From Escherichia phage vB_EcoM_Skers, in sequence record MW748999.1: a stretch of 64,000 nt of DNA; one strand, 5' to 3'. Numbering within the stretch: the first letter of the stretch is position 1; each line of letters begins with the position of its first letter. Of the stretch, positions 2,176-52,208 are shown in pieces. The notes beneath the pieces are model-generated. The model did not search any database. It saw nothing but the letters and a program-made list of their open reading frames with translations, and was not told the DNA's origin. The position numbers were made by a program, and so were the translations under genes.

Positions 2176-2649
2176 CTATTTGTTAAGCCCTTTAAAGCCA
2201 AACACTTTCTTTAATGCATGTTCGGTGATGATCTTAAACTCCATGTTATGCTTTTGGCATAATTTCACGGCAGCTAACCATTTTTCAGTATTTTTTGTGT
2301 ATGTCCATACTTCATGCATATATCGTTGCTTTGTCTTCGCGGTCATTCTTTTTGGCTTTTCCGGTGGCCTTGTCTCTTTAGCTGGTTTAACTTCCCATAA
2401 ATGCTCCTTGCCATCATCAAACTTAACGTAAAAATCCATAAAGTATCTGTGTCTTTTTCCGTCTGTTGATGACTCATAAGGAATTACTACGGTCTCAGAT
2501 CCCCATTTTGCAACTCTAGGATTGCGGTCTAGCCACTGCATGATCCATCTTTCCCAGCTTGAACGGTATGTGATTTTACGTATATCCCCTTTATACTTTT
2601 CCTTATTCTCAGGAACATACTTGCCCTTATAAGTGTTAGATCCTCCCAT
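2176..2649 (-). CDS. 4: gp4-like head completion protein (assignment by size and position)
   Basis: 157 aa; divergently oriented immediately upstream of gene 53 as in T4. Confidence 0.45.
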   Translation of the reverse strand: MGGSNTYKGKYVPENKEKYKGDIRKITYRSSWERWIMQWLDRNPRVAKWGSETVVIPYESSTDGKRHRYFMDFYVKFDDGKEHLWEVKPAKETRPPEKPKRMTAKTKQRYMHEVWTYTKNTEKWLAAVKLCQKHNMEFKIITEHALKKVFGFKGLNK

Positions 2650-2663
2650 TTTAGCACCCTTTA

Positions 2664-6745: not shown

Positions 6746-8646
6746 CAAAGCAAAAGATTACACAAATTCCTGATATTTTTAATGCTGCTACATTCGATGA
6801 AATTAAAAGCGCATTAACAGACTGGATGAGAAACCAGGAAGAATTTAAAGATTTTGATTTTAATGGTGCTGGTATTAACGTATTGATGGACTTGCTCGCA
6901 TATAACACTCTGTATATTCAGCAATTCGCCAACGCCGCTCTATATGAATCTTTTATCAGAACGGCAATTAAGCGTAGTTCAGTTGTTCAAGCCGCGCAAG
7001 ATTTAGGATATTTGCCAGCAAGTAAAACTAGTGCATCGACTACAATTATGTTGCACGTATCCCATCCGCGAAATCCGGCAAGTATTCGAATCCCACGAGG
7101 AACTAAATTTATTGCAAGTGTGGATCGCCAGACGTCTTACCCGTTTGTGACTACAGAAGACGTTGTGAGTGTTTTAGGTTCAAATGGTTTATATACGCCT
7201 ATGCTTAAAGTCGCACAAGGTCGTATTGTTCGTACAGAAATGTTATTTGATCCGAAGAAACAAATTCTGATCCGTGATCCTGATATTGACCGCGCTCAGG
7301 TTAAATTGTGGGTAGATGGTGCTGAATGGAAAGACTGGACGCGAGAAAGCATTGTTAATGCAACTGGCGCTAGTAATATTTTCTATATGCGTGAAACCGT
7401 AGACGGCCATACAGAAATCTTCTTTGGTGAAGGTGAATCAACTTTATCTGCTGCTGGTGGGGCGCTGGAAGCAAATTATATTGGTGGGCTTAAGCCGTCA
7501 ACTGGTGCTAATATTGTTATCGAATATATCAGCACGAAGGGCGCGGAAGCAAACGGTTCAGTTAATTTTACATATGCGGATACCCTTGCATCTATCTCTA
7601 TTGTTAAAATTATTGAGAATCCGACAAATGATCGTGATTATGTCGGCGCAGATGGTGGTGGTGATCCTGAATCAATCGAACGTATCCGTGAACTTGCTCC
7701 GGTAATGCGTGAATCTCAGCGTCGTTGTGTTACTGCTTCCGACTATGAGGCTTTTGTGTCTAGCCGGTTTGGTAGTATTGTTCAGGCGGTACAATGTTTC
7801 ACCGACCGAGAAAAACCGGGTTATGCTTTTGTTGCGGTTAAGCCTAAATCTGGCTTGCGCTTGACAACTGTTCAAAAAGAAGATATGCGGGATTATCTGG
7901 CAAAATATAATCTTGCCCCTATCACTCCGAGCATCATTGACCCTAACTATCTGTATATTAAACAGAATATTAAAGTTTCCTATTCAATCAATGACTTGTC
8001 AGAATCAGAGCAGTGGTTGCGCGGTGCGGTTATTGATCAGATTGATGCATATTATACCGACGAAGTGGAAATTTTTAACCAGACCTTTAGTAAGTCTAAA
8101 ATGCTTGCGCGTATTGACAAAGCTGATGTATCTGTGATAGGTTCTAGTGCAGAAATCGAGATGGTGCGAGAGATCGACAACTTCTATAAAGCACCGATGG
8201 CTGGAATCAAGTTTTTAAACCAGTATAAGAGCGGAATCAAGTCTAGTTCGTTCAACTTCGAAAAGGACGGTAAACAATACCCGATCCATTATGTAAGTAC
8301 AGAAATGAAAAAAGAATCCGGTTTAGCTAAATTGCTGGTTGGACCTTTCCCTGTTGGTTCTGCAATCGCTTTACCGCACTATTCCGGCACTGATTTTGAT
8401 AAAGAGGTTATCGACGGTGCGGACCTATACTTTGAGGTTGGAGAGGTTCAGCATTATGAAGACCTTATTTCATGGGATCTGGGTAAACTGAATATCAATA
8501 GCGATCGCTTTACTGGTTCATATATTGAGTTGACAGCTAAACCGATTGCTGATAACATTTTTACTAAAGACGGTTCTTTGATCGTGTTTGAAAACGATCT
8601 CCGTCCTCAGTACACAACTATTAGTCTGGAGGCAATTGCTCAATGA
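6742..8646 (+). CDS. 6: gp6 baseplate wedge subunit
   Basis: 634 aa, size and position as T4 gp6; start overlaps gp5.4 stop. Confidence 0.85.
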
Positions 8647-43199: not shown

Positions 43200-43379
43200 T
43201 TAGAACATTTTTGAAATTAATTCTGCTTTGATTTCGCAGAGAACATCTAAAGATTTCTCGTCACCTGCTTTTGCGGCTTCTGCTTGCATTTTTGAAATGG
43301 CTTCAATGTCAGTGCAATTATAAGCCGCTTGAACTTTAGCGATTGCGATGATTGCCGATTCGATGGTTAAGTGTTTCAT
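43200..43379 (-). CDS. hypothetical small protein (about 59 aa)
   Basis: hand-translated (MKHLTIESAIIAIAKVQAAYNCTDIEAISKMQ...); flanked by PeSL cassettes on both sides; below track cutoff. Confidence 0.4.
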   Translation of the reverse strand: MKHLTIESAIIAIAKVQAAYNCTDIEAISKMQAEAAKAGDEKSLDVLCEIKAELISKMF

Positions 43380-43447
43380 GTTTGATTCTCCTTTCGTTTC
43401 GGTATGTGTGTATTATAGGGGATCGATGATCCCCTGTCAACAACTTT
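43380..43447 (-). promoter_or_regulatory. PeSL-like early promoter cassette
   Basis: minus-strand TTGACA - GGGGATCATCGATCCCC (palindromic 17-nt spacer) - TATAAT; leader ...GGAGAATCAAAC-ATG. Confidence 0.65.
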
Positions 43448-44002
43448 TTAGTTATTTTTTAATTGCTCATCTTGCAATAGGGCAATCACATGCTGGCGAT
43501 GCTCTTCCGATTGAGGCACACCGAAAAAGTTTGTTTTGTAGAAATACTCTAATCGGTCTTCTCGTGTGCTCTCTTCCATCATGATCGCTGGTAGTCCGAG
43601 ATTTCGGAAACGTCGCTTTTCTGCTGGAGTAAAATCACTGTAATACAACATAGAATCATCATTACCAGCAATGCTAAACTCATCCTTCATAAAGGAGAAT
43701 ATTGCGTTTAAACGCTGTTTACCGTCCACGATTTCGATCTCATAGCGAGAGCCATCATCAATCTTAGCCATTGCGATAGCACCAACCGGAAAATCATTAA
43801 TAAGGTTTTCGATAAACATACGTTTGTTTTCTGTGTCCCATACTAAAGGACGCTGATAATCTGGGTTCATGTTGATATAGCCATCTTCTAACCATGCATC
43901 ATAAACAGAGATGACAAAGTTTTTAGTATTGGTATAGTAACGGCGTTTAGGCGTTAAACGGTTCATGTTATAGTCTCCTGAATGGATCATCACGTAAATC
44001 AA
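43448..44002 (-). CDS. DUF262 / ParB-Srx-superfamily protein (DGxQR motif)
   Basis: motifs PDYQRPLVWDTENKRMFIENLINDFPVG and IVDGKQRLNAI match the DUF262/ParB-like N-terminal domain pattern; true start may be an internal Met near 43966. Confidence 0.6.
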   Translation of the reverse strand: MIYVMIHSGDYNMNRLTPKRRYYTNTKNFVISVYDAWLEDGYINMNPDYQRPLVWDTENKRMFIENLINDFPVGAIAMAKIDDGSRYEIEIVDGKQRLNAIFSFMKDEFSIAGNDDSMLYYSDFTPAEKRRFRNLGLPAIMMEESTREDRLEYFYKTNFFGVPQSEEHRQHVIALLQDEQLKNN

Positions 44003-44300
44003 TATCTTTTAAGAACTCCTCCCATGAATGGCGGATATTGTTCTTAATTCTCCAGATAAGAGCAGGGATTGAACGCTCTCCCATCTGGAAGTATGGATCA
44101 TATGATCCATATGCCCAATATGCTACTACAATTCCACAATCAGCGCAATAATATTCTATTTCACTTGCTGGCGACCAAAGTCCATCAATATGATCGGTGA
44201 TCTTGCTTTCGATGTTATGGCTATGACAATCAGGGCAACGGATGCAATGACCTTGTTTATCGTAATTTGACGTTAGAGAATACTTAAACAATCTCATCAT
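43968..44300 (-). CDS. hypothetical zinc-ribbon protein (110 aa)
   Basis: two CxxC pairs (CIRCPDC ... CADCG); co-oriented and overlapping neighbours. Confidence 0.5.
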   Translation of the reverse strand: MMRLFKYSLTSNYDKQGHCIRCPDCHSHNIESKITDHIDGLWSPASEIEYYCADCGIVVAYWAYGSYDPYFQMGERSIPALIWRIKNNIRHSWEEFLKDIDLRDDPFRRL

Positions 44301-45013
44301 AGATCCTTATTTGCTTCAAATACTGCCTTTGCGAATCCTCGCGGGGTAAGTGACCTTATAGTCTTTGTTTTCGTTCCTTTCCCGCCTAGCTTAGAATGCT
44401 GTTTACTGTACCCTTTATTAATCTGCAAAGGTTTCTTTTCTGGCATTATAAAGCCTTGTCCGGTCCATAAGCAAGTCTTTTTCGGGTACATATCACGGGC
44501 GGCAATATACTCAGGAAACGTAGGATGCTTATCATCTTCCGGCAAATAACCGCCATATTCCCACGGATGGAACATATAATCAGGCTTACGCCACATGCTA
44601 GAGATAACGCTTACAGGATTCTCTATCATGTAGGGAACTCCTAGCCATTCACCCAAATACGCGGTTATTTTGGCTGCCCTTACATCATGAACTTGAATCA
44701 ATGGTCCTTGTTCTCGTTTCTTTCGTTCAAAGTGCGCAGCGCCACTAACAGCTAAATTGGTGCACGGTGGGAATGCAAAGATAATATCCGGTTTCCCCCA
44801 TTCAAGGTCCATTGCTCTTTCCAGCCAGTTCAAATCAATCCAGGTGTTTACATAGGTAATGTTTGGATGTTCAAATCGGGTATTATACTTTTTGTATGTG
44901 CCGTGGTCGGCGTCATCCGCATTAAAGCAGACTACCTTATGACCTGCTTTAGCCCATTCTAGCCCCATTATCCCCGATCCGTCAAAGTTGCAGAATATTA
45001 ATTTTTGTTTCAT
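44297..45013 (-). CDS. truncated DNA C5-cytosine methyltransferase-like protein (238 aa; motifs I, IV, VI only)
   Basis: FCNFDGSG (motif I F-x-G-x-G-like), FPPCTNLAVSGA (motif IV Pro-Cys), MIENP (motif VI ENV-like); no recognisable target-recognition domain or motifs VIII-X. Confidence 0.55.
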   Translation of the reverse strand: MKQKLIFCNFDGSGIMGLEWAKAGHKVVCFNADDADHGTYKKYNTRFEHPNITYVNTWIDLNWLERAMDLEWGKPDIIFAFPPCTNLAVSGAAHFERKKREQGPLIQVHDVRAAKITAYLGEWLGVPYMIENPVSVISSMWRKPDYMFHPWEYGGYLPEDDKHPTFPEYIAARDMYPKKTCLWTGQGFIMPEKKPLQINKGYSKQHSKLGGKGTKTKTIRSLTPRGFAKAVFEANKDL

Positions 45014-45503: not shown

Positions 45504-45586
45504 TGTTTGATTCTCCTAAGTGGTATCTCGTCTTGATGGTTGTATTGTAGGGGAGTTATCCTCCCCTGTCAACACTTTTTATAAAA
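45504..45586 (-). promoter_or_regulatory. PeSL-like early promoter cassette
   Basis: minus-strand TTGACA - GGGGAGGATAACTCCCC (palindromic spacer) - TACAAT; leader ...TAGGAGAATCAAACA-ATG. Confidence 0.6.
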
Positions 45587-45754
45587 TCATTTGTTAATTT
45601 CTGGTGCGTTGCTAGGATAGTAACCTTCTTTAACTCCGAGGTATTTCGCAACCATCCCTACAATCTTCTGTGCTACTACAATGTCAAATTTCAGATAATC
45701 TTCGCCGTGGGTTTCAATGATATATGCTTCACATGCTGCTTTCGTCTCGAACAT
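45587..45754 (-). CDS. hypothetical small protein, copy A of duplicated 55-aa gene (MFETKAACEAY...)
   Basis: ORF track 45587..45802, start placed at internal Met directly after the PeSL leader; about 85 percent identical at protein level to hand-translated copy B. Confidence 0.55.
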   Translation of the reverse strand: MFETKAACEAYIIETHGEDYLKFDIVVAQKIVGMVAKYLGVKEGYYPSNAPEINK

Positions 45755-45829
45755 TTTGATTCTCCTATATCTCGTTGGTATGTGTGTAGTATAGGGGATC
45801 ACCGATCCCCGTCAACAACTTTTTTAAAA
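45755..45829 (-). promoter_or_regulatory. PeSL-like early promoter cassette
   Basis: minus-strand TTGACG - GGGATCGGTGATCCCC - TATACT; leader ACACACATACCAACGAGATATAGGAGAATCAAA-ATG. Confidence 0.65.
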
Positions 45830-46111
45830 TTATTCGTGATTAGTTTCGATGTTGTGCATTTTGCACCAGTTCAGCCAATCGCCCAGATCCTGATAGTTGA
45901 TGCTTTTATCTGCTGCCATCGTTTTTGTCTTGATACCCATATGTGCGTTATGAGTAAGCATTTTTACAGTGAACTCGATTTTATCGCCTTTAGCTTTAAC
46001 ATCAACCAGTTTGGTCCACTGGCTACCAGCGCCGCGAATGTTCATACCAACGATGTTTCCGATGTATGCTTCTTTGTTTTTCAGGATTTCGGTTGCTTTG
46101 ATGAATTTCAT
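45830..46111 (-). CDS. hypothetical protein (93 aa)
   Basis: ORF track; PeSL cassette immediately upstream. Confidence 0.5.
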   Translation of the reverse strand: MKFIKATEILKNKEAYIGNIVGMNIRGAGSQWTKLVDVKAKGDKIEFTVKMLTHNAHMGIKTKTMAADKSINYQDLGDWLNWCKMHNIETNHE

Positions 46112-46183
46112 TGTTTGATTCTCCAGTTCGTTTCGGTATGGGTGTATTATGCTATGTTCTTACTTTGGTGTCAACAACTTTTT
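46112..46183 (-). promoter_or_regulatory. PeSL-like early promoter cassette
   Basis: minus-strand TTGACA followed by spacer and CATAAT; leader CACCCATACCGAAACGAACTGGAGAATCAAACA-ATG. Confidence 0.6.
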
Positions 46184-46453
46184 TTAGATATTTTCAGAAA
46201 TAAATTTTAAAACTTGACGTAAATGTTTCTCATCTTTGATAGTCGCCGGAAGTTCTTCTTTTACTTCCTGTGCAAGATAGATATTTCCGTTCCAAGTGAA
46301 AGATCCGTCTTCGTTTACGCGATAGCTGAACATCCACTCGCAATCATTTTCGATTTCATATACACACAGAAGGGTGTAATCGTTAAAGCTATTGATTTCA
46401 AGGTCGAAGCCGTGGCGTTTTGCAAAGTTGGTAGTGGTTTTAGTCAGTGCCAT
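46184..46453 (-). CDS. hypothetical protein (89 aa)
   Basis: ORF track; PeSL cassette immediately upstream. Confidence 0.5.
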   Translation of the reverse strand: MALTKTTTNFAKRHGFDLEINSFNDYTLLCVYEIENDCEWMFSYRVNEDGSFTWNGNIYLAQEVKEELPATIKDEKHLRQVLKFISENI

Positions 46454-46530
46454 TGTTTGATTCTCCTAAGTGGTATCTCGTTTCGATGTGTGTATTATGC
46501 TATAGGCGTGATCTGGTGTCAACAACTTTT
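46454..46530 (-). promoter_or_regulatory. PeSL-like early promoter cassette
   Basis: minus-strand TTGACA - 17 nt - CATAAT; leader ...CGAAACGAGATACCACTTAGGAGAATCAAACA-ATG. Confidence 0.6.
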
Positions 46531-46546
46531 TTAATTTTTTGGAAAT

Positions 46547-46571
46547 AAAAAAAGCCGACACTAAGGTCGGC
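46547..46571 (-). terminator. rho-independent terminator after gene 46580..46891
   Basis: minus-strand GCCGAC-CTTAGT-GTCGGC followed by TTTTTTT. Confidence 0.7.
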
Positions 46572-46579
46572 TAATAAAA

Positions 46580-46891
46580 TCATTTAGACAAATAATCATT
46601 CTGTGCAATCCGGTCAGCATGTTCCGGCGTTACGTCAATTGCAATCACTTTAACGCGCGCTTTCTTGACTGAATTTTCTCGTAGCCAGTGCGTGTGAGCG
46701 TGCACATTTTTATATTTTGATGCTGATGCGGTTTCAAAGGTACGGATCGGACCAGGGTAATCAGCGTAAAGGATCTCTAGGTCATCGGTGATGTAAAAAT
46801 ATACATCATAATTACTGTTCTCTAGTTTAAGCAGAGACTTTCGGAACATTGGGAGATTTTCGCGGGTAAATTCAAAGATATTATCTTTCAT
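46580..46891 (-). CDS. H-x-H-W family small protein, member 1 (103 aa)
   Basis: shares YDVYFYITDDLEI and HAHTHW...VKVIAIDVTPEHAD motifs with five other ORFs in this region. Confidence 0.6.
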   Translation of the reverse strand: MKDNIFEFTRENLPMFRKSLLKLENSNYDVYFYITDDLEILYADYPGPIRTFETASASKYKNVHAHTHWLRENSVKKARVKVIAIDVTPEHADRIAQNDYLSK

Positions 46892-46923
46892 AGTATTATC
46901 CTCAATAGTTGGATGAAAAGGGG

Positions 46924-46946
46924 CGTTAACGCCCCCATATATTAAA
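46924..46946 (-). terminator. hairpin terminator overlapping the stop of gene 46942..47229
   Basis: minus-strand GGGGGCGTTAACGCCCC followed by TTTTCAT. Confidence 0.55.
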
Positions 46947-47229
46947 ACAGTCCTTCCTGTACACCGTAGTAGAGTTCATCGCTGATAATTTCATTAATGC
47001 GACGGTGTGCATATTCCTGATTTGCGAAGTTATCAGCAAGTTCTACTTTAGTTTCGCCGTCATGAGTCCATTTAGTGATAACTTTACCATCTGCAAATTT
47101 GAAGTTGAACTCTTTAGCTACCGCATCGCGTACCAGACGTGCAAACTTATTGTTGCGGATTGCATTGTCGGTTTCGTGTGCAGCGTGAGCGAATTTGTTA
47201 ACTTTCAGGGTGATAGTAATGTATGCCAT
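46942..47229 (-). CDS. hypothetical protein (95 aa)
   Basis: ORF track; PeSL cassette immediately upstream. Confidence 0.5.
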   Translation of the reverse strand: MAYITITLKVNKFAHAAHETDNAIRNNKFARLVRDAVAKEFNFKFADGKVITKWTHDGETKVELADNFANQEYAHRRINEIISDELYYGVQEGLF

Positions 47230-47310
47230 AATTTGATTCTCCTAGTTAGAAAGTGTATCTCGTTTCGATGGGTGTATTATGCTATACACCCGATCTTATG
47301 TCAACACTTT
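47230..47310 (-). promoter_or_regulatory. PeSL-like early promoter cassette
   Basis: minus-strand TTGACA - 17 nt - CATAAT, hairpin GGGTGTATAGCATAATACACCC enclosing the -10; leader ...CTAACTAGGAGAATCAAATT-ATG. Confidence 0.6.
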
Positions 47311-47589
47311 TTATAAAATAATTTTTTGATATTTTTCTATGATGTTCGTGTAAGTCACATCAACCGCTAGCACCGTTGCTTCGAATCCACCGTTTAGCCA
47401 ATGGCTATGATCATGATCGTGAAAGAAACCTAGACCAGTACGAAGACCTTCTTTATATTCTGCGCGTACATTCAGTTTGTCGTCGATAAACAGATAAAAC
47501 CATGAATTTTTACTAGGATTGATGATACAACCTTTCAGATTAGGGAGAATATCACGACTAAGAATAAACTTATCACCTACTTTGAACAT
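47311..47589 (-). CDS. H-x-H-W family small protein, member 2 (92 aa)
   Basis: motifs WFYLFIDDKLNV and HDHDHSHW...ATVLAVDVT. Confidence 0.6.
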   Translation of the reverse strand: MFKVGDKFILSRDILPNLKGCIINPSKNSWFYLFIDDKLNVRAEYKEGLRTGLGFFHDHDHSHWLNGGFEATVLAVDVTYTNIIEKYQKIIL

Positions 47590-47603
47590 AATATTTTCCT
47601 CAC

Positions 47604-47912
47604 TTATAAAGTTTGACCGTTGTTTTTCGCATAATGCTTAATGCGTGCTTGATCTGCTTCCGCTGGTGATAGATTCCATGCAACCACTACAACTTCTGAC
47701 GCATCATGATCATTATCACTTACCCAATGATTATGATTCATACAATTGTTTGCTATCGCGTGAGTAAATGATCTCATTACCGGAGACGTATAATCATAGT
47801 AACGGATTTTCAGATTTTCATCAACGTACAAGTAGATCGTATACGGCTTATATTCAGTAACCAGTAACAGACAGTTACGCAATTCTGGGAAAATCTTTTT
47901 AGTTAATTTCAT
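47604..47912 (-). CDS. H-x-H-W family small protein, member 3 (about 102 aa)
   Basis: ORF track 47604..47993; start placed at internal Met (MKLTKK) just after the upstream stop; motifs YTIYLYVDENLKI and MNHNHW...VVVVAWNLSPAEAD. Confidence 0.55.
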   Translation of the reverse strand: MKLTKKIFPELRNCLLLVTEYKPYTIYLYVDENLKIRYYDYTSPVMRSFTHAIANNCMNHNHWVSDNDHDASEVVVVAWNLSPAEADQARIKHYAKNNGQTL

Positions 47913-47913
47913 T

Positions 47914-48123
47914 TTATAATCCTCGGTCGCGGCTATAGTACACTGTACGCCATACAATTTCATGTTTCGTGTCGCTCCAGCACACGATCTCATTTACTCT
48001 TAAATCTTTGTTATCAACAAAAGATGAACATTGTGACGCTTCTTTCATCATTTTATCTGCTGTTTTCTCATCAAATACAGCACAGATTTCTTTATACACT
48101 CGATAATCTTTAAACTTGCTCAT
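47914..48123 (-). CDS. hypothetical small protein, MSKFKDY paralog 1 (about 69 aa)
   Basis: ORF track 47914..48135 with start at internal Met; N-terminus MSKFKDYRVYKEI...ADKMMKEASQCSSF parallels the adjacent paralog. Confidence 0.5.
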   Translation of the reverse strand: MSKFKDYRVYKEICAVFDEKTADKMMKEASQCSSFVDNKDLRVNEIVCWSDTKHEIVWRTVYYSRDRGL

Positions 48124-48125
48124 AA

Positions 48126-48335
48126 TTAACACCAATCAAGAGTTTTTGAAAACACATCTATCCATTGTTGAGTATATGCGGTTTCTTTCCATGACACAAT
48201 ACCAGTCGAATAATGGTTTTTGTTTCCAGAAAAGGACGGGCATTTTGATGCATCTTCCATCATCTTTTCGGCGAACTCTGGTGCGTATACTCGCAGGATC
48301 TGTTGATATGCTTTATAGTCTTTAAATTTGCTCAT
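48126..48335 (-). CDS. hypothetical small protein, MSKFKDY paralog 2 (69 aa)
   Basis: MSKFKDYKAYQQI...AEKMMEDASKCPSF; tandem with paralog 1. Confidence 0.5.
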   Translation of the reverse strand: MSKFKDYKAYQQILRVYAPEFAEKMMEDASKCPSFSGNKNHYSTGIVSWKETAYTQQWIDVFSKTLDWC

Positions 48336-48600
48336 AATCGTTAACTACCTTATCAGCTTCTTTTATTGTTTTTACATCAACTGCGATAATCCGTAAAGGT
48401 TCGTCGAAGGTCCACCAGTGGTCATGAATATCAGCTTGTGATTTATCACCAAAGGAATCACGAATATCATTTTTACATTTATAGCTAATGTGACCTTCAT
48501 AGTCAACATAAAGGTAATTATCGAAAATCGGCGTTTTTAAGATCATACCGAAAAATCTTTCTTTGTGTGTCTTATCCAGTGTTGCAGTAATTCGCATCAT
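48322..48600 (-). CDS. H-x-H-W family small protein, member 4 (92 aa)
   Basis: motifs NYLYVDYEGHI and HDHWW...RIIAVDVKTIKEAD. Confidence 0.6.
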   Translation of the reverse strand: MMRITATLDKTHKERFFGMILKTPIFDNYLYVDYEGHISYKCKNDIRDSFGDKSQADIHDHWWTFDEPLRIIAVDVKTIKEADKVVNDYEQI

Positions 48601-48612
48601 AATATATTCCTC

Positions 48613-48792
48613 TTAGAAAGGGATGGTCATTTCTTGAGCTTGTACATTCTCGTTAGGATTAAACTTCATCCAACCGATATTGTCTACCAGCATATGCACA
48701 TTTTTATCATATCCTACGTGAGTAGTCAACACTAAATGTGCTTTACCTTCAACGATGATTTCCATGTACTTCTGAACTTCGATAGCTTTCAT
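48613..48792 (-). CDS. hypothetical small protein (about 59 aa)
   Basis: hand-translated (MKAIEVQKYMEIIVEGKAHLVLTTHVGYDKNVHMLVDNIGWMKF...); directly downstream of a PeSL leader; below track cutoff. Confidence 0.4.
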   Translation of the reverse strand: MKAIEVQKYMEIIVEGKAHLVLTTHVGYDKNVHMLVDNIGWMKFNPNENVQAQEMTIPF

Positions 48793-48857
48793 TTTTGATT
48801 CTCCGTTTGTTGTCTTGATGGGAGTATATTACTACTCCCTTTAATCATTGTCAACTA
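48793..48857 (-). promoter_or_regulatory. PeSL-like early promoter cassette
   Basis: minus-strand TTGACA - 17 nt - TAATAT, hairpin GGGAGTAGTAATATACTCCC over -10; leader ...CAAACGGAGAATCAAAA-ATG. Confidence 0.6.
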
Positions 48858-49025
48858 TTATTTGTTAATTTCCGGTGCGTTGCTCGGATAGTAACCTTCT
48901 TTAACACCCAGATATTTCGCAACCATTCCGGTGATCTTCTGTGCTACTACGATATCGAATTTCAGGTAGTCTTCACCGTGGTTTGCTACAATGTATGCTT
49001 CGCATTCTGCTTTAGTCTGGAACAT
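48858..49025 (-). CDS. hypothetical small protein, copy B of duplicated 55-aa gene (MFQTKAECEAY...)
   Basis: hand-translated; protein about 85 percent identical to copy A at 45587..45754; below track cutoff. Confidence 0.5.
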   Translation of the reverse strand: MFQTKAECEAYIVANHGEDYLKFDIVVAQKITGMVAKYLGVKEGYYPSNAPEINK

Positions 49026-49096
49026 TTTTGATTCTCCTATATCTCGTTGGTATGTGTGTAGTATAGGGGATCACCGATCCCCTGTCAACAACTTTT
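49026..49096 (-). promoter_or_regulatory. PeSL-like early promoter cassette (near-identical to the one at 45755..45829)
   Basis: minus-strand TTGACA - GGGGATCGGTGATCCCC - TATACT; leader identical to the cassette upstream of copy A. Confidence 0.65.
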
Positions 49097-49399
49097 TTAT
49101 TCTTCGTCTTTATCTTTATATGCGTATTTCATAAATTTGTCTGCTACTTCATCGGCATGTTCCGATTCTACGTCGGATTCGAGAACAATAGCAAGATCGG
49201 TTTCGTCGTTTCCGTCATACCAATGATTATGGGTATCGTTTTCTTCGATATAGAATGAGTCATTTGGAGTTGGACGACAATATACATCTAAATTCTCATC
49301 GATGTAAAAGATCCAATCTTCGTAAAGAATAACCGTATTAGCCAGATTTTTATTGCCTTCAACGAAAGGTTCAGCTACAAATAGCTTAGTTTGTTCCAT
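49097..49399 (-). CDS. H-x-H-W family small protein, member 5 (about 100 aa)
   Basis: ORF track 49097..49456 with start at internal Met (MEQTKLF); motifs WIFYIDENLDV and THNHW...LAIVLESDVESEHAD. Confidence 0.55.
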   Translation of the reverse strand: MEQTKLFVAEPFVEGNKNLANTVILYEDWIFYIDENLDVYCRPTPNDSFYIEENDTHNHWYDGNDETDLAIVLESDVESEHADEVADKFMKYAYKDKDEE

Positions 49400-49607: not shown

Positions 49608-49685
49608 AATATTATCCTCAATTTGTGGGAGAGTATTACCCTCCCGATTATTGTTATACTACATTACGCAAAATGGCGTGTCAAT
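49608..49685 (-). promoter_or_regulatory. sigma70-like promoter with 5'-leader stem-loop
   Basis: minus-strand TTGACA - 17 nt - TAGTAT overlapping the 3' end of the upstream gene, then hairpin GGGAG...CTCCC and GAGGATAATATT-ATG. Confidence 0.5.
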
Positions 49686-49966
49686 GCTTCTTTTGCTGTT
49701 CCGCTAAGATTCTCGATCTCTCCTGGCATAACATCAACCGCCAGAACTTCTACAACATCCTCTGATCCTAACCAGTGAGTATGACCTTTGTAGAACTTGA
49801 TATCCCATTTATCGCTATCGCTAGCCCACCACACATCACCGTCGATAAAGTTGATGTAAAGCACACTACGACACATTGAATTAATTACTTTCAATACTGC
49901 GCCTTTCATATCTTCCACGGTATGGTCTTCCATTTTGAAGACCTCACCTACCTGAACTTTTGCCAT
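49664..49966 (-). CDS. H-x-H-W family small protein, member 6 (100 aa)
   Basis: motifs VLYINFIDGDV and GHTHW...VVEVLAVDVMPGE. Confidence 0.55.
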   Translation of the reverse strand: MAKVQVGEVFKMEDHTVEDMKGAVLKVINSMCRSVLYINFIDGDVWWASDSDKWDIKFYKGHTHWLGSEDVVEVLAVDVMPGEIENLSGTAKEALTRHFA

Positions 49967-49983: not shown

Positions 49984-50163
49984 TTACATAACAATCACGC
50001 CAGCCGTTGAAAGTTGATGTTTCAACTGAGCATTTTCTGCTACTGTCAAATCAATGATTTCTTGTGACGCTGCAATCATATAGCCATTGGTGATATTGTT
50101 TTTCATCAGTTCAATGGTTTCTTCGTTGTAGCGGATTTTAGCGATGATTTCGTTGAAGTTCAT
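49984..50163 (-). CDS. hypothetical small protein (about 59 aa)
   Basis: ORF track 49984..50229 with start at internal Met (MNFNEI) directly after the PeSL leader. Confidence 0.45.
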   Translation of the reverse strand: MNFNEIIAKIRYNEETIELMKNNITNGYMIAASQEIIDLTVAENAQLKHQLSTAGVIVM

Positions 50164-50239
50164 GTTTGATTCTCCTAGTTCGTTTCGGTATGTGTGTAGT
50201 ATAGGGGATCGGTGATCCCCTGTCAACAACTTTTTTGAA
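50164..50239 (-). promoter_or_regulatory. PeSL-like early promoter cassette
   Basis: minus-strand TTGACA - GGGGATCACCGATCCCC - TATACT; leader ACACACATACCGAAACGAACTAGGAGAATCAAAC-ATG. Confidence 0.65.
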
Positions 50240-50716
50240 TTATTTTTCTTGATGCTCGCGCTCGTACTTTTCGAAATAAAATTCTACTGGCTGGTCGTGG
50301 ATTGACAGTAAGCCAAAGCGTTTAGCCGCTCGCAATCCCATATTGCGCTGAATGTACTTCTGGAAGTTCTCGCGTATACACTTACGCCAGTATTCTAAGC
50401 CCATACAGCTTTTATAAAGATTGCATTGCACACATGCCGGATTCATGTTATCAAGTATATCATGCTCCGGTTTATGCATTCCTACAACCTTATACTTCCA
50501 CGATCCATCATCATTACGGGCAATTCGTCCATTTTCATCATAGACTACCTTTGAGCGTCGCAATACTGGTTTGATGTGGTCTGCGTGCCAGCGATCCCCT
50601 AGTTCCTCGCCACAATAGGCACAACGTCCACCATATTTCATTTTCAGGATCTGGCGTTGCTCTTTCTTTGACAATTTTTTAGGTTTAGGGGCTTTCGCCC
50701 CTTCATTATCACACAT
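50240..50716 (-). CDS. HNH endonuclease (free-standing, homing-endonuclease-like)
   Basis: 158 aa; HNH core GRCAYCGEEL...WHADHIKPV...NMNPACVQCN (Cys pair, His-x-Asp-His, Asn, Cys pair); start overlaps DNA ligase stop. Confidence 0.75.
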   Translation of the reverse strand: MCDNEGAKAPKPKKLSKKEQRQILKMKYGGRCAYCGEELGDRWHADHIKPVLRRSKVVYDENGRIARNDDGSWKYKVVGMHKPEHDILDNMNPACVQCNLYKSCMGLEYWRKCIRENFQKYIQRNMGLRAAKRFGLLSIHDQPVEFYFEKYEREHQEK

Positions 50717-52208
50717 CGAATACCTCTTTTACTGTATTTGCAGTGGTCTTGTCGTAGCGAATACGTTTGATGATCGGGAGAAATAAAGAGAACTCTGGTT
50801 CATCTTCTTTACGTGATTTGCTGCGGATATACCCGTTGCATGTCATCTCAATGACTTTTCCAATCAGGTTATGACGGTCAGCCCATAACATTTCTCGGTC
50901 AAGTTCATTTCTACGATCGAACGGAATCACACGTTCAATACCATCATCTTTTTCGGTTGTAGTGTCGGTCAATCCCGATCCGGTGTTGGTCATCATTCGT
51001 CCGCACGCACTACGGACAGTAAAACCGCCTACCTTATTAGGATCTTTACTATGCGGATATACATCAACAATTTCCGCGTCGAAGTCAATCACTTCTTTAA
51101 ATTTAACCTGATCTTTACTACGGCGATCTTCAAATACACCATGTAAATTTTTAAGGATAATACCTTCTAAGCCCATGTTTACATAGCGATGATATACTTC
51201 GCGAGCTTCATCTATATTGTTAACTACAGTGTTTTCGATTATCTGAACACGAGGATCGTTAAGTTCTTCAACAATCTGTTTTAGTTCTTCGAATCGATCT
51301 TTATATTGCTTCGTTGCTTTCTCGTTTCCGTAATACACATCACGGTCGATAACATCCCAGACAGTGTAAACAATACATTGGGCTTCTTCTTTTGGAATAG
51401 TTCCTTTCAGTGATTTGTTGAGGATACCATTTCCGGTCTGACGATCTGCAACAACGGATTCTTTTACTGCTTCCGCTACTGGCGTTAATGGCATTTCCTC
51501 TTCTTCAAATATCCATGACAGAGTACCATCATAAACGCTTTCAACGAAGTTCTGCGCTGGTGTTTGCGAAAGGGTAGGCATATATACCAATTCCCCATCT
51601 AGAACAATTCCACGGCCTCGTAGACGCTCTAAAACAGCAAACAAATCATCCAGCCCCTGATAGGTATTACCTGAACGGGTATAGATTGCTAATGTTTCCC
51701 CGTCAATATCAGCCATCCCACGAGCGCCATCGCTTTTAAGTTGTGCATACGCCGGATACTTGATATTAGCAATAGTCTTATCAGAACATGACGATGCAAG
51801 GTGGCACGGTTGCTGAGGGATCAGTTTCTTCCATACCTTGTTTGCAGTGGTAGCGGAACAACCGCATTCCAGATCACGATTCAGGACCATCATTGCAACT
51901 TTAGCATCATCTTCTGACAAGCAAGTCAGAGTATCGGTAACTAGCTGTAATGCTGCATTACCAGTTACTTGACGCGTGGCAAGTTTATTTTTAAAGACCT
52001 GTAATGCACCGGATAAAGACAATACAGACGAATAACGCGATGGTTTATCGTATTTCTTTACGCCAAACGTAACCTGTTTGCAATATGCCAGATAAAAACA
52101 TTCTTTCAGTGTTTCATTGCTTGCAGATTCTTTCAGGATCTTTTCTTTCAGCGATGTTTTGTCTGTTGCTGCAAGCTGGTTAATGATATTAAGAATTGAC
52201 ATTTTCAC
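50709..52208 (-). CDS. 30: gp30 ATP-dependent DNA ligase
   Basis: 499 aa (T4 ligase 487 aa); motif I lysine in AQLKSDGARG (KxDG); located after alt region as in T4. Confidence 0.9.
   Translation of the reverse strand: MKMSILNIINQLAATDKTSLKEKILKESASNETLKECFYLAYCKQVTFGVKKYDKPSRYSSVLSLSGALQVFKNKLATRQVTGNAALQLVTDTLTCLSEDDAKVAMMVLNRDLECGCSATTANKVWKKLIPQQPCHLASSCSDKTIANIKYPAYAQLKSDGARGMADIDGETLAIYTRSGNTYQGLDDLFAVLERLRGRGIVLDGELVYMPTLSQTPAQNFVESVYDGTLSWIFEEEEMPLTPVAEAVKESVVADRQTGNGILNKSLKGTIPKEEAQCIVYTVWDVIDRDVYYGNEKATKQYKDRFEELKQIVEELNDPRVQIIENTVVNNIDEAREVYHRYVNMGLEGIILKNLHGVFEDRRSKDQVKFKEVIDFDAEIVDVYPHSKDPNKVGGFTVRSACGRMMTNTGSGLTDTTTEKDDGIERVIPFDRRNELDREMLWADRHNLIGKVIEMTCNGYIRSKSRKEDEPEFSLFLPIIKRIRYDKTTANTVKEVFDV

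Follow-up and report, generated by a model that had tools for sequence, protein, structure and literature searches.

Two 55-codon genes of phage vB_EcoM_Skers, found in a 64,000-nt stretch of sequence record MW748999.1 (hereafter the window), very probably belong to PeSL–ORFan cassettes that were duplicated long ago through PeSL exchange, have been kept by selection and are still recombining. PeSLs comprise a sigma70 promoter, a G/C stem-loop and a Shine–Dalgarno sequence, and were described in hyperplastic region 3 (HPR3) of phages RB49 and phi1 (Arbiol, Comeau, Kutateladze, Adamia & Krisch 2010, PMC2839356) and later extended to other T4-likes (Comeau et al. 2014, PMC4122927). The window matches 58 Krischvirus records at 93–96% identity and derives from a Krischvirus, an RB49/phi1-like T4-type coliphage, and both 55-codon genes sit in HPR3, the region in which PeSLs were defined. 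Ten cassettes cluster here at 43.1–50.2 kb, between alt and gene 30. The duplicated cassette is an ordinary, well-documented case of PeSLs shuffling small genes, and the system is already known.

Two copies of a gene and its PeSL

Copy A (45587..45754, minus strand) is orthologous to RB49 ORF191 (RB49p191), phi1 ORF191 and GEC-3S BN201_0197, and copy B (48858..49025, minus strand) to RB49 ORF205 (RB49p205), phi1 ORF205 and GEC-3S BN201_0208; each encodes a 55-aa early ORFan of PHROG 8009. The initial annotation of this DNA had reported two ORFs about 85% identical, and both lie where it placed them, but the proteins are 89% identical (49 of 55 residues; BLASTP E = 1e-37) and its figure is nearer the nucleotide value of 84% (141 of 168 nt). 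The mechanically called ORF of copy A reaches further, as far as a GTG (45802). Annotations of RB49, phi1 and GEC-3S place the start at the ATG (45754), which shows the GGAGAATCAAA Shine–Dalgarno spacing. Pairwise alignment with flanks, the check proposed in the annotation, shows that similarity starts at the A-tract upstream of the −35 box and ends at the stop codon, so that it is not confined to promoters placed before unrelated coding regions. The repeat unit is a PeSL plus its CDS, about 240 bp long, and the copies are 3,271 bp apart. A tblastn search found no third copy of the gene within the 64-kb window. Ten small ORFs, homologues of ORF193–204 (45830..48792, minus strand), are bracketed by the two direct repeats.

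The copy-A PeSL (‘193/191’; 45755..45829, minus strand) carries a −35 box TTGACG (45815..45810), a −10 box TATACT (45793..45788) and a Shine–Dalgarno GGAG (45765..45762), with a stem-loop GGGGATC-GGT-GATCCCC (45810..45794) filling its 16-nt spacer; it is chimeric, joining an A-type 5′ end to a B-type loop and leader. The copy-B PeSL, an orthologue of PeSL206/205 (49026..49096, minus strand), has TTGACA (49088..49083) and TATACT (49065..49060) separated by a 17-nt spacer, a GGAG Shine–Dalgarno and a stem-loop (49082..49066) between −35 and −10, a position that marks one of the five published PeSL subclasses, which are distinguished by where the stem-loop lies (PMC2839356). As predicted promoters, copy B (TTGACA-17-TATACT) scores 11/12 and copy A (TTGACG-16-TATACT) 10/12. 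Upstream lies an AT-rich tract containing the stop codon of the preceding gene (TAATTTTAAAAAAGTTGTTGAC in copy A, GAATAAAAAAGTTGTTGAC in copy B), and both PeSLs end in GGAGAATCAAA(A)ATG, the Shine–Dalgarno sequence and start codon of the ORFan. From AAAAAAGTTGTTGAC to the ATG the two cassettes are identical at 65 of 67 positions, with no substitutions and only two 1-nt indels, which bears out their description in the annotation as nearly identical; at 76/81 they are the closest of the 66 pairs among 12 promoter cassettes compared from the window (median 0.70).

The stem-loop GGGGATC-GGT-GATCCCC appears in both MFE and centroid folds, and GGGGATCNNNGATCCCC occurs four times in the window against 0 expected; the whole cassettes fold no better than shuffled sequence (z = −0.6 and −1.2). 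This PeSL subtype was rejected as a canonical intrinsic terminator, since its stem is not followed by a T-run; the stem-loop is also absent from the output of the terminator scan. The published test of stem-loop termination used another PeSL, 211/210 (PMC2839356). No Rfam family was detected over 43–51 kb at gathering thresholds. PeSL206/205 of RB49/phi1, upstream of ORF205, yielded about 13,000 Miller units (PMC2839356), and the core of the copy-B PeSL differs from that of RB49 only at and just after the −10 box (TATACTA versus TATAATG), the A-tract upstream of −35 differing as well. Going by the sequence and by this lacZ assay on the orthologous PeSL, each of the two genes is expected to be transcribed on its own by host RNA polymerase as infection begins. 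Each cassette consists of an A-rich tract with the upstream stop codon, a predicted near-consensus sigma70 early promoter whose −35/−10 spacer is a 7-bp G/C stem-loop, a GGAG leader and the 55-codon gene.

The 12 cassettes compared from the window share the PeSL consensus. Downstream of copy A, the ‘191/190’ PeSL (45504..45586, minus strand) is predicted to drive an 83-aa ORF190 homologue and has a stem-loop GGGGAG-GATAA-CTCCCC, on the minus strand, between TTGACA (−35) and TACAAT (−10). Downstream of copy B, the ‘205/204’ PeSL (48793..48857, minus strand) is of another subtype, with a stem-loop GGGAGTA-GTAATA-TACTCCC overlapping the −10 box. The subtype of copies A and B recurs at 50166..50239 (minus strand; GGGGATC-ACC-GATCCCC on the coding strand), where it is 86% identical to the copy-B PeSL and precedes an unrelated 59-aa ORF (49984..50165), and at 43378..43447 (minus strand; loop ATC on the coding strand, perfect TTGACA-17-TATAAT), before another unrelated 59-aa ORF. 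Because the same subtype also precedes unrelated genes, with identities of up to 86–90%, the cassette is the published PeSL, an element that recombines and is shared among genes instead of belonging to the 55-aa gene alone.

Age and origin of the pair

Judged by the divergence of its coding sequences, the copying event is old, not recent. The two CDSs differ at 27 of 168 nt (Sd 19, Nd 7; dS about 1.05, dN 0.055, dN/dS 0.05), with synonymous sites close to saturated; orthologues across genomes differ by merely 0–9 nt, and flanking genes are 95–100% identical between Krischvirus genomes. In the window and in all eight of the other two-copy genomes examined, the two sites are the same and hold separate A-type and B-type orthologues, and tblastn place counts imply two copies in 51 of 58 genomes and one copy in the remaining 7. 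Both lineages have most likely been kept by purifying selection. The second copy would most likely have arisen long ago by homologous exchange within conserved PeSL sequences, candidate routes being unequal crossing-over, the return of an excised PeSL mini-circle by integration, and uptake of a diverged homologue carried by another phage. A mini-circle carrying ORFs 191–194 has been sequenced (PMC2839356).

The same divergence can be read as a sign that the copies are xenologues, A or B having been captured from another phage by PeSL-targeted recombination, through a mini-circle or co-infection, instead of being duplicated within the lineage. The PeSL model explicitly allows such capture (PMC2839356), the A/B divergence (16% of nucleotides, dS about 1) far exceeds the 0–5% of surrounding Krischvirus genes, and relatives of the gene occur in unrelated siphophages and, as a 78%-identical lineage, in metagenomes. 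We nevertheless consider this origin improbable: A and B share 89% of residues, far more than the roughly 50–78% seen with the outside homologues recovered, no donor with an A-type gene was found, and the mechanics and outcome would otherwise be the same as those of a duplication.

The initial annotation took the pair as direct evidence that a promoter-plus-gene unit had been copied within the genome; read as a recent block duplication in situ, this makes the near-identical cassette an untouched relic. The anatomy of this proposal holds, in that the repeat covers exactly the PeSL and CDS and the cassettes are identical at 65 of 67 positions, but a CDS dS of about 1.05 beside 67 non-coding nt that lack substitutions, together with A and B lineages that are orthologous in the eight other two-copy genomes (and 51 two-copy genomes implied), makes recent copying very hard to sustain.

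Probable gene conversion between the PeSLs

The identity of the A and B PeSLs is 97% in vB_EcoM_Skers versus 84–91% in seven other genomes, where PeSL divergence is about that of the CDS. In the window, the copy-A PeSL combines a GGT loop of B type with the B-specific leader CCAACGAGATAT, whereas six of the seven other A-PeSLs have CCGAAACGAAAT; the A-PeSL of phage Whisky has the B-type leader and lacks the B-type loop. The presence of B-specific bases in the copy-A PeSL indicates recent gene conversion, which would have overwritten about 45 nt of this cassette with copy-B sequence. Conversion patches are also seen in the CDS of kaaroe_A, Cognac and Brandy_B, suggesting that short conversions hit coding sequence in other phages too. 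The near-identity of the cassettes is therefore no relic of the duplication, and since PeSLs undergo gene conversion, cassette identity is a poor guide to duplication age.

A purely functional explanation, in which ordinary paralogues have similar cassettes through constraint on strong early promoters and no cassette recombination takes place, draws on the strong consensus of all PeSLs and the 86–90% identity of same-subtype PeSLs before unrelated genes, but is highly implausible, as it leaves unexplained the transfer of the non-consensus, B-specific CCAACGAGATAT onto copy A in vB_EcoM_Skers and Whisky and is contradicted by hybrid PeSLs at the Cognac, FL04, Brandy, JK32 and UPWr_E1 junctions.

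Probable copy loss in related phages

Recombination at these cassettes is recorded in genomes that have a single copy. Five related phages are without copy A (Brandy, JK32, UPWr_E1, MIZ4 and MIZ5). At the junctions of Brandy, JK32 and UPWr_E1 the sequence passes from the 5′ half of the 193/191 PeSL into the 3′ half of the 191/190 PeSL; the MIZ4 junction is also a chimeric PeSL, although the block removed there is larger, and MIZ5, a single-copy phage near-identical to MIZ4, presumably lost the larger block likewise. A divergent sub-lineage behind the absence of copy A was rejected, as flanking genes in these phages are 95–99% similar to those of the window, as in two-copy genomes. The locus of Cognac and FL04 runs in the order ORF206, hybrid PeSL, A-type CDS and ORF190, with ORF193–204 absent together with one repeat copy. 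The Cognac/FL04 and Brandy-type junctions were checked and fall inside PeSL sequence, and published PeSL-linked indels have crossovers between the −10 box and the ATG (PMC2839356).

Under the duplication and exchange that we favour, PeSL-internal crossovers would account for the loss of copy A by itself in Brandy, JK32 and UPWr_E1, and for that of all 3.3 kb between the copies in Cognac and FL04. As excision and integration give the same chimeras, the junction reads equally as loss or as gain of copy A; what favours loss is parsimony and the A-type patch in Brandy_B. PeSLs would continue to feed the homology-driven recombination of the phage, keeping the A/B pair in interaction.

It is also conceivable, if rather unlikely, that the homogenised direct repeats bracket the ten-ORFan 3.3-kb block as a unit excisable as a multi-gene PeSL mini-circle, forming a homology-driven, integron-like array. 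If so, the circle could be lost, re-inserted or packaged, Cognac and FL04 would be natural ‘empty-site’ products, and the frequency with which the block is shed or moved would be tuned by PeSL gene conversion.

Relation to known systems

The cassettes agree with the RB49/phi1 PeSLs in genus, locus and the orthology of ORF191 and ORF205, in their layout (an A-tract with the upstream stop, sigma70 boxes with a GGGG...CCCC stem-loop between them, a Shine–Dalgarno sequence and the ATG) and in their association with indels that cross over between the −10 box and the ATG. What is added to the PeSL papers is the B-to-A PeSL conversion in vB_EcoM_Skers, the patches of conversion in coding sequence and the deletions from one copy to the other in Cognac/FL04, and the paralogy of ORF191 and ORF205 is not mentioned in PMC2839356 or PMC4122927, in which ‘paralog’ and ‘duplicat’ do not occur in that sense. 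Our analysis illustrates a published mechanism at the locus of its first description and leaves current understanding unchanged: conserved promoter/stem-loop cassettes provide portable homology with which T4-type phages shuffle, duplicate and delete small early genes. Its modest additions are the old paralogy of ORF191 and ORF205, both PeSL-bounded, the occurrence of gene conversion in PeSLs, and the presence in natural isolates of the deletion predicted from recombination between the two genes.

Morons and integron cassettes offer partial parallels. Morons, reportedly described by Hendrix and colleagues in 2000, are single accessory phage genes with their own promoter and terminator, for whose accretion illegitimate recombination has reportedly been proposed. 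The PeSL units are likewise small non-essential genes with their own promoter between other genes, and the Skatevirus homologue of the 55-aa gene resembles a classic moron, having its own predicted TTGACG/TAGAAT promoter and a divergent orientation. Unlike in morons, the PeSL regulatory cassette is itself the recombination substrate and is common to many neighbouring genes. Integron cassettes share with PeSLs the small ORF supplied with a promoter, possible circles and insertion at a conserved site, an analogy drawn by the PeSL authors themselves (PMC2839356); they differ in that PeSL exchange proceeds by general homologous recombination and every PeSL cassette has its own promoter. No integrase or attC/attI is annotated in the 14–16 kb loci of GEC-3S, RB49 and phi1. 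The sole nuclease near the locus is an HNH endonuclease.

The 55-aa protein family

Both proteins match the PHROG 8009 profile over all 55 residues (1–55; E = 7e-38 and 1e-38), and neither matches Pfam at E up to 10. All 5 clusters that a word-indexed search turned up among 5.8 billion proteins came from Krischvirus-like or chimeric assemblies, and an exhaustive HMMER profile search of 1.84 billion representatives added only two further small homologues (P0006 and P0007), other matches being short stretches within long proteins, which were left out. Homologues also occur in unrelated siphophages (Skatevirus SeSz-2, D10 and Pu29; E. coli swi2; Aeromonas Avpd1), and the metagenomic sequences, 78% identical, form a third lineage. 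AlphaFold2, run on a 5-sequence alignment, gave a poor model (pLDDT 64) of two helices and a disordered tail, with which Foldseek found no match in BFVD at E < 2. Our best guess is that the protein is a putative small early host-interaction factor acting in takeover or anti-defence, and that it is built, as far as can be guessed, as a two-helix hairpin with a conserved EGYYPSNAPEINK tail, the paralogues differing chiefly in helix 1.

Two copies of a promoter-plus-gene unit between alt and gene 30

Every gene at about 43–52 kb of the window lies on the minus strand, including two 55-amino-acid ORFs: copy A, ending at 45587 with an ATG at 45754, and copy B, at 48858..49025. The mechanical start of the copy A ORF is a GTG at 45802, and the ATG at 45754 has GGAGAATCAAA before it. 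The two proteins are identical at 49/55 positions (89%; BLASTP, E = 1e-37) and the coding sequences at 141/168 nucleotides; the figure of 85 percent in the initial annotation therefore describes the nucleotide identity but not the protein identity. Alignment of both units with their flanks places the 5′ limit of the repeat at the A-tract that immediately precedes GTTGTTGAC and the 3′ limit at the stop codon (TGA in copy A, TAA in copy B), with promoter, leader and coding sequence covered without a break and unrelated flanks on both sides. Bounded in this way, the repeat unit is about 240 bp, and the copies are 3,271 bp apart. Between GTTGTTGAC and the ATG, the two cassettes differ by a pair of 1-nt indels and are free of substitutions (65/67 identical). 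ORF listing, BLASTP and flank alignment thus bear out the report of two similar ORFs with near-identical upstream cassettes, and the similarity extends through the coding sequence rather than being confined to the promoter. No third copy was found by tblastn within the 64-kb window.

A search with the 4.2-kb stretch returned 58 phage records at 93–96% identity, all of them (58/58) from Krischvirus and including RB49, phi1, JSE, GEC-3S and relatives. Annotated records carry copy A as RB49p191, phi1p191 and BN201_0197 and copy B as RB49p205, phi1p205 and BN201_0208. Both genes fall in the interval from alt to the DNA ligase gene (gene 30), and in the GEC-3S record each is preceded by an annotated promoter with −35 and −10 signals. 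This locus is 'HPR3' of Arbiol et al. 2010, the paper that defined promoter/stem-loop cassettes, or PeSLs (PMC2839356). A PeSL opens with an AT-rich tract holding the upstream stop codon, continues with a sigma70-consensus early promoter and ends in the Shine–Dalgarno (SD) sequence and ATG of an ORFan; its GGGG...CCCC stem-loop can occupy five positions, one of them between −35 and −10 (PMC2839356). The cassette before copy B, PeSL206/205, was cloned and gave about 13,000 Miller units, and a sequenced mini-circle with ORFs 191–194 had recombined within its flanking PeSLs, at a point 3′ of the −10 and 5′ of the ATG (Arbiol et al. 2010, PMC2839356). The duplicated unit is an instance of this published system of PeSL/ORFan modular shuffling, at its type locus.

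In the window, the promoters read TTGACA-17-TATACT for copy B and TTGACG-16-TATACT for copy A, and the spacer of each consists of the hairpin GGGGATC-GGT-GATCCCC, found in minimum free energy and centroid folds. The hairpin has no T-run after it and is absent from the terminator-scan list. The window contains four occurrences of GGGGATCNNNGATCCCC, where none is expected; the two that do not belong to copies A and B precede unrelated ORFs of 59 aa, at 43.4 and 50.2 kb. A pattern census identified twelve cassettes with the RB49-type consensus AAAAAGTTGTTGACA...TATAATACACACATACCGAAACGAA...GGAGAATCAAA-ATG, 10 of which fall within 43.1–50.2 kb. Directly 3′ of each gene copy lies another PeSL of a different subtype (191/190 after copy A, 205/204 after copy B), and each copy is therefore a PeSL–ORF–PeSL module.

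The 3-nt loop of the GGGGATC...GATCCCC hairpins (45794..45810, 49066..49082 and 50204..50220) varies among phages at orthologous PeSLs, where GGT, its reverse complement ACC, GGGA, ATC and TGT all occur. At copy B the loop is GGT in RB49, JSE and the window, and ACC in phi1, GEC-3S and MIZ4. Such loop polymorphism would be compatible with flipping of the hairpin through intrastrand template switching at a perfect palindrome.

A mobile family of small proteins

Both copies match PHROG 8009 (annotated as unknown function) over their full length, and neither matches Pfam. Searches of very large protein sets added nothing beyond close relatives, a third lineage at 78% identity and two small homologues at greater distance. 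By tblastn the family also has members in siphophages that are unrelated, namely Skatevirus SeSz-2, D10 and Pu29, E. coli phage swi2 and Aeromonas Avpd1. The homologue in SeSz-2, a 45-kb Skatevirus siphophage of Salmonella, has 51 aa ending in EGYYPSNAY (2501..2656 of the fetched locus), is divergently oriented, adjoins the large terminase gene and has its own sigma70-like promoter (TTGACG/TAGAAT) without the G/C hairpin; its presence there shows that the family moves between unrelated phage groups. A weak AlphaFold model (pLDDT 64) has helices at residues 5–16 and 18–38 and leaves the conserved C-terminal tail EGYYPSNAPEINK unstructured, and Foldseek with this model returned nothing significant. 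Promoter class and genomic neighbourhood suggest a putative small early host-interaction protein.

An ancient gene pair with a recently converted cassette

Copies A and B differ at 27 nucleotides, with 19 synonymous and 7 non-synonymous differences (dS = 1.05, dN = 0.055, dN/dS = 0.05), and both are under purifying selection. Across ten other genomes, A orthologues are 1–8 nt apart and B orthologues 0–9 nt apart, whereas A and B differ by 16–29 nt. Six amino-acid positions separate the lineages (3, 7, 13, 14, 15 and 32), and in most genomes five of them are fixed within A and within B; the exception is position 15, with T in every A copy and N or T among B copies. Together with flanking genes that are 95–100% identical among the genomes compared, these distances make the A/B split much older than the diversification of sequenced Krischviruses. 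Whether the second gene arose by duplication or by capture of a diverged homologue, the event is ancient.

In GEC-3S, RB49, phi1, JSE, kaaroe, E26 and Whisky, the A and B PeSL cores of the same genome are 84–91% identical, about equal to the coding sequences (84–87%); in the window the cores are 97% identical. The leader of the B PeSL, CATACCAACGAGATATAGGAG, is distinctive; in six of the seven genomes (all but Whisky) the A PeSL carries the general PeSL consensus CATACCGAAACGAAATAGGAG in its place. The A PeSL of the window is A-type at its ends (GAC-GGGG, lacking the extra A, and AAA-ATG) but B-type in its loop (GGT) and leader, a signature that points to B-to-A gene conversion over roughly 45 nt rather than an untouched duplication. 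In Whisky, the A PeSL has a B-type leader and a loop that is still A-type. Short conversion patches also occur in coding sequences, with B-type bases at positions 98–119 of kaaroe_A and 113–131 of Cognac, and A-type bases at positions 50–74 of Brandy_B. The initial proposal that a promoter-plus-gene unit was copied within the genome thus holds for the content of the repeat, but the near-identity of the cassettes reflects recent conversion inside a shared cassette family, superimposed on an ancient gene pair.

Probable loss of gene copies by exchange between cassettes

Counts of tblastn match locations imply two copies in 51/58 Krischvirus records and one in 7/58. The seven single-copy genomes are all identified; the loci of six were examined, and MIZ5 was assessed from hit tables only. 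Brandy, JK32 and UPWr_E1 lack copy A alone, and their ORF193/ORF190 intergenic region holds one chimeric PeSL, with a 5′ half from the 193/191 cassette and a 3′ half from the 191/190 cassette that meet between the −10 and the SD. MIZ4 has a bigger PeSL-to-PeSL deletion extending to the ORF185 cassette; the near-identical MIZ5 genome, which shows the same lone match, presumably shares this deletion. The entire ORF186–191 block, methyltransferase included, is missing from MIZ4.

Cognac and FL04 keep one 55-aa gene, with an A-type coding sequence, between ORF206 (the upstream neighbour of B) and ORF190 (the downstream neighbour of A), and lack ORF193–204. Their hybrid PeSLs switch from B-type to A-type between the −35 and the loop in FL04 and between leader and start codon in Cognac. 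Such arrangements are what homologous exchange between the A and B cassettes would be expected to produce. Neither of the two PeSL papers (PMC2839356, PMC4122927) appears to mention that ORF191 and ORF205 are paralogues, that conversion has occurred or that Cognac and FL04 carry these deletions; the additions are incremental.

Other small genes and insertion points

Six paralogous ORFs of 92–103 aa, all on the minus strand (46580..46891, 47311..47589, 47604..47912, 48322..48600, 49097..49399 and 49664..49966), are interleaved with PeSLs and 22–33% identical to one another. In all six, an invariant H-x-H-W motif precedes a hydrophobic (V/I)xA(V/I)DV segment; none has a convincing Pfam match, and two weakly match phrog_9345 besides their own PHROGs. 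The set resembles an ORFan family that has expanded locally and may bind metal. The block contains one more small duplicated gene, a tandem pair of 69-aa paralogues starting MSKFKDY (47914..48123 and 48126..48335, minus strand; ORF201/202 homologues, phrog_8471), with no PeSL between its copies.

The gene just upstream of copy A, beyond the PeSL at 45755..45829, is ORF193 in the window, phi1 and GEC-3S, ORFan192 in RB49 (PeSL at 7196..7270 of the fetched locus) and the 312-nt ORF EpJSE_00199 in JSE (PeSL at 8196..8263 of the fetched locus); these differences suggest that this PeSL is a repeatedly used insertion point. On the minus strand downstream of copy A lie a DNA methyltransferase homologue (ORF189, 44297..45013) and, after it, an ORF of 184 aa (43448..44002) whose N-terminus has a DUF262/ParB-like motif, DGKQR. 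At the other end of the block, an HNH endonuclease gene (50240..50716, minus strand) overlaps the start of the gene 30 DNA ligase (50709..52208). An extra 345-nt ORF (ORF211) lies upstream of the endonuclease gene in RB49, JSE, E26 and Cognac, and is absent from the window, phi1 and GEC-3S.
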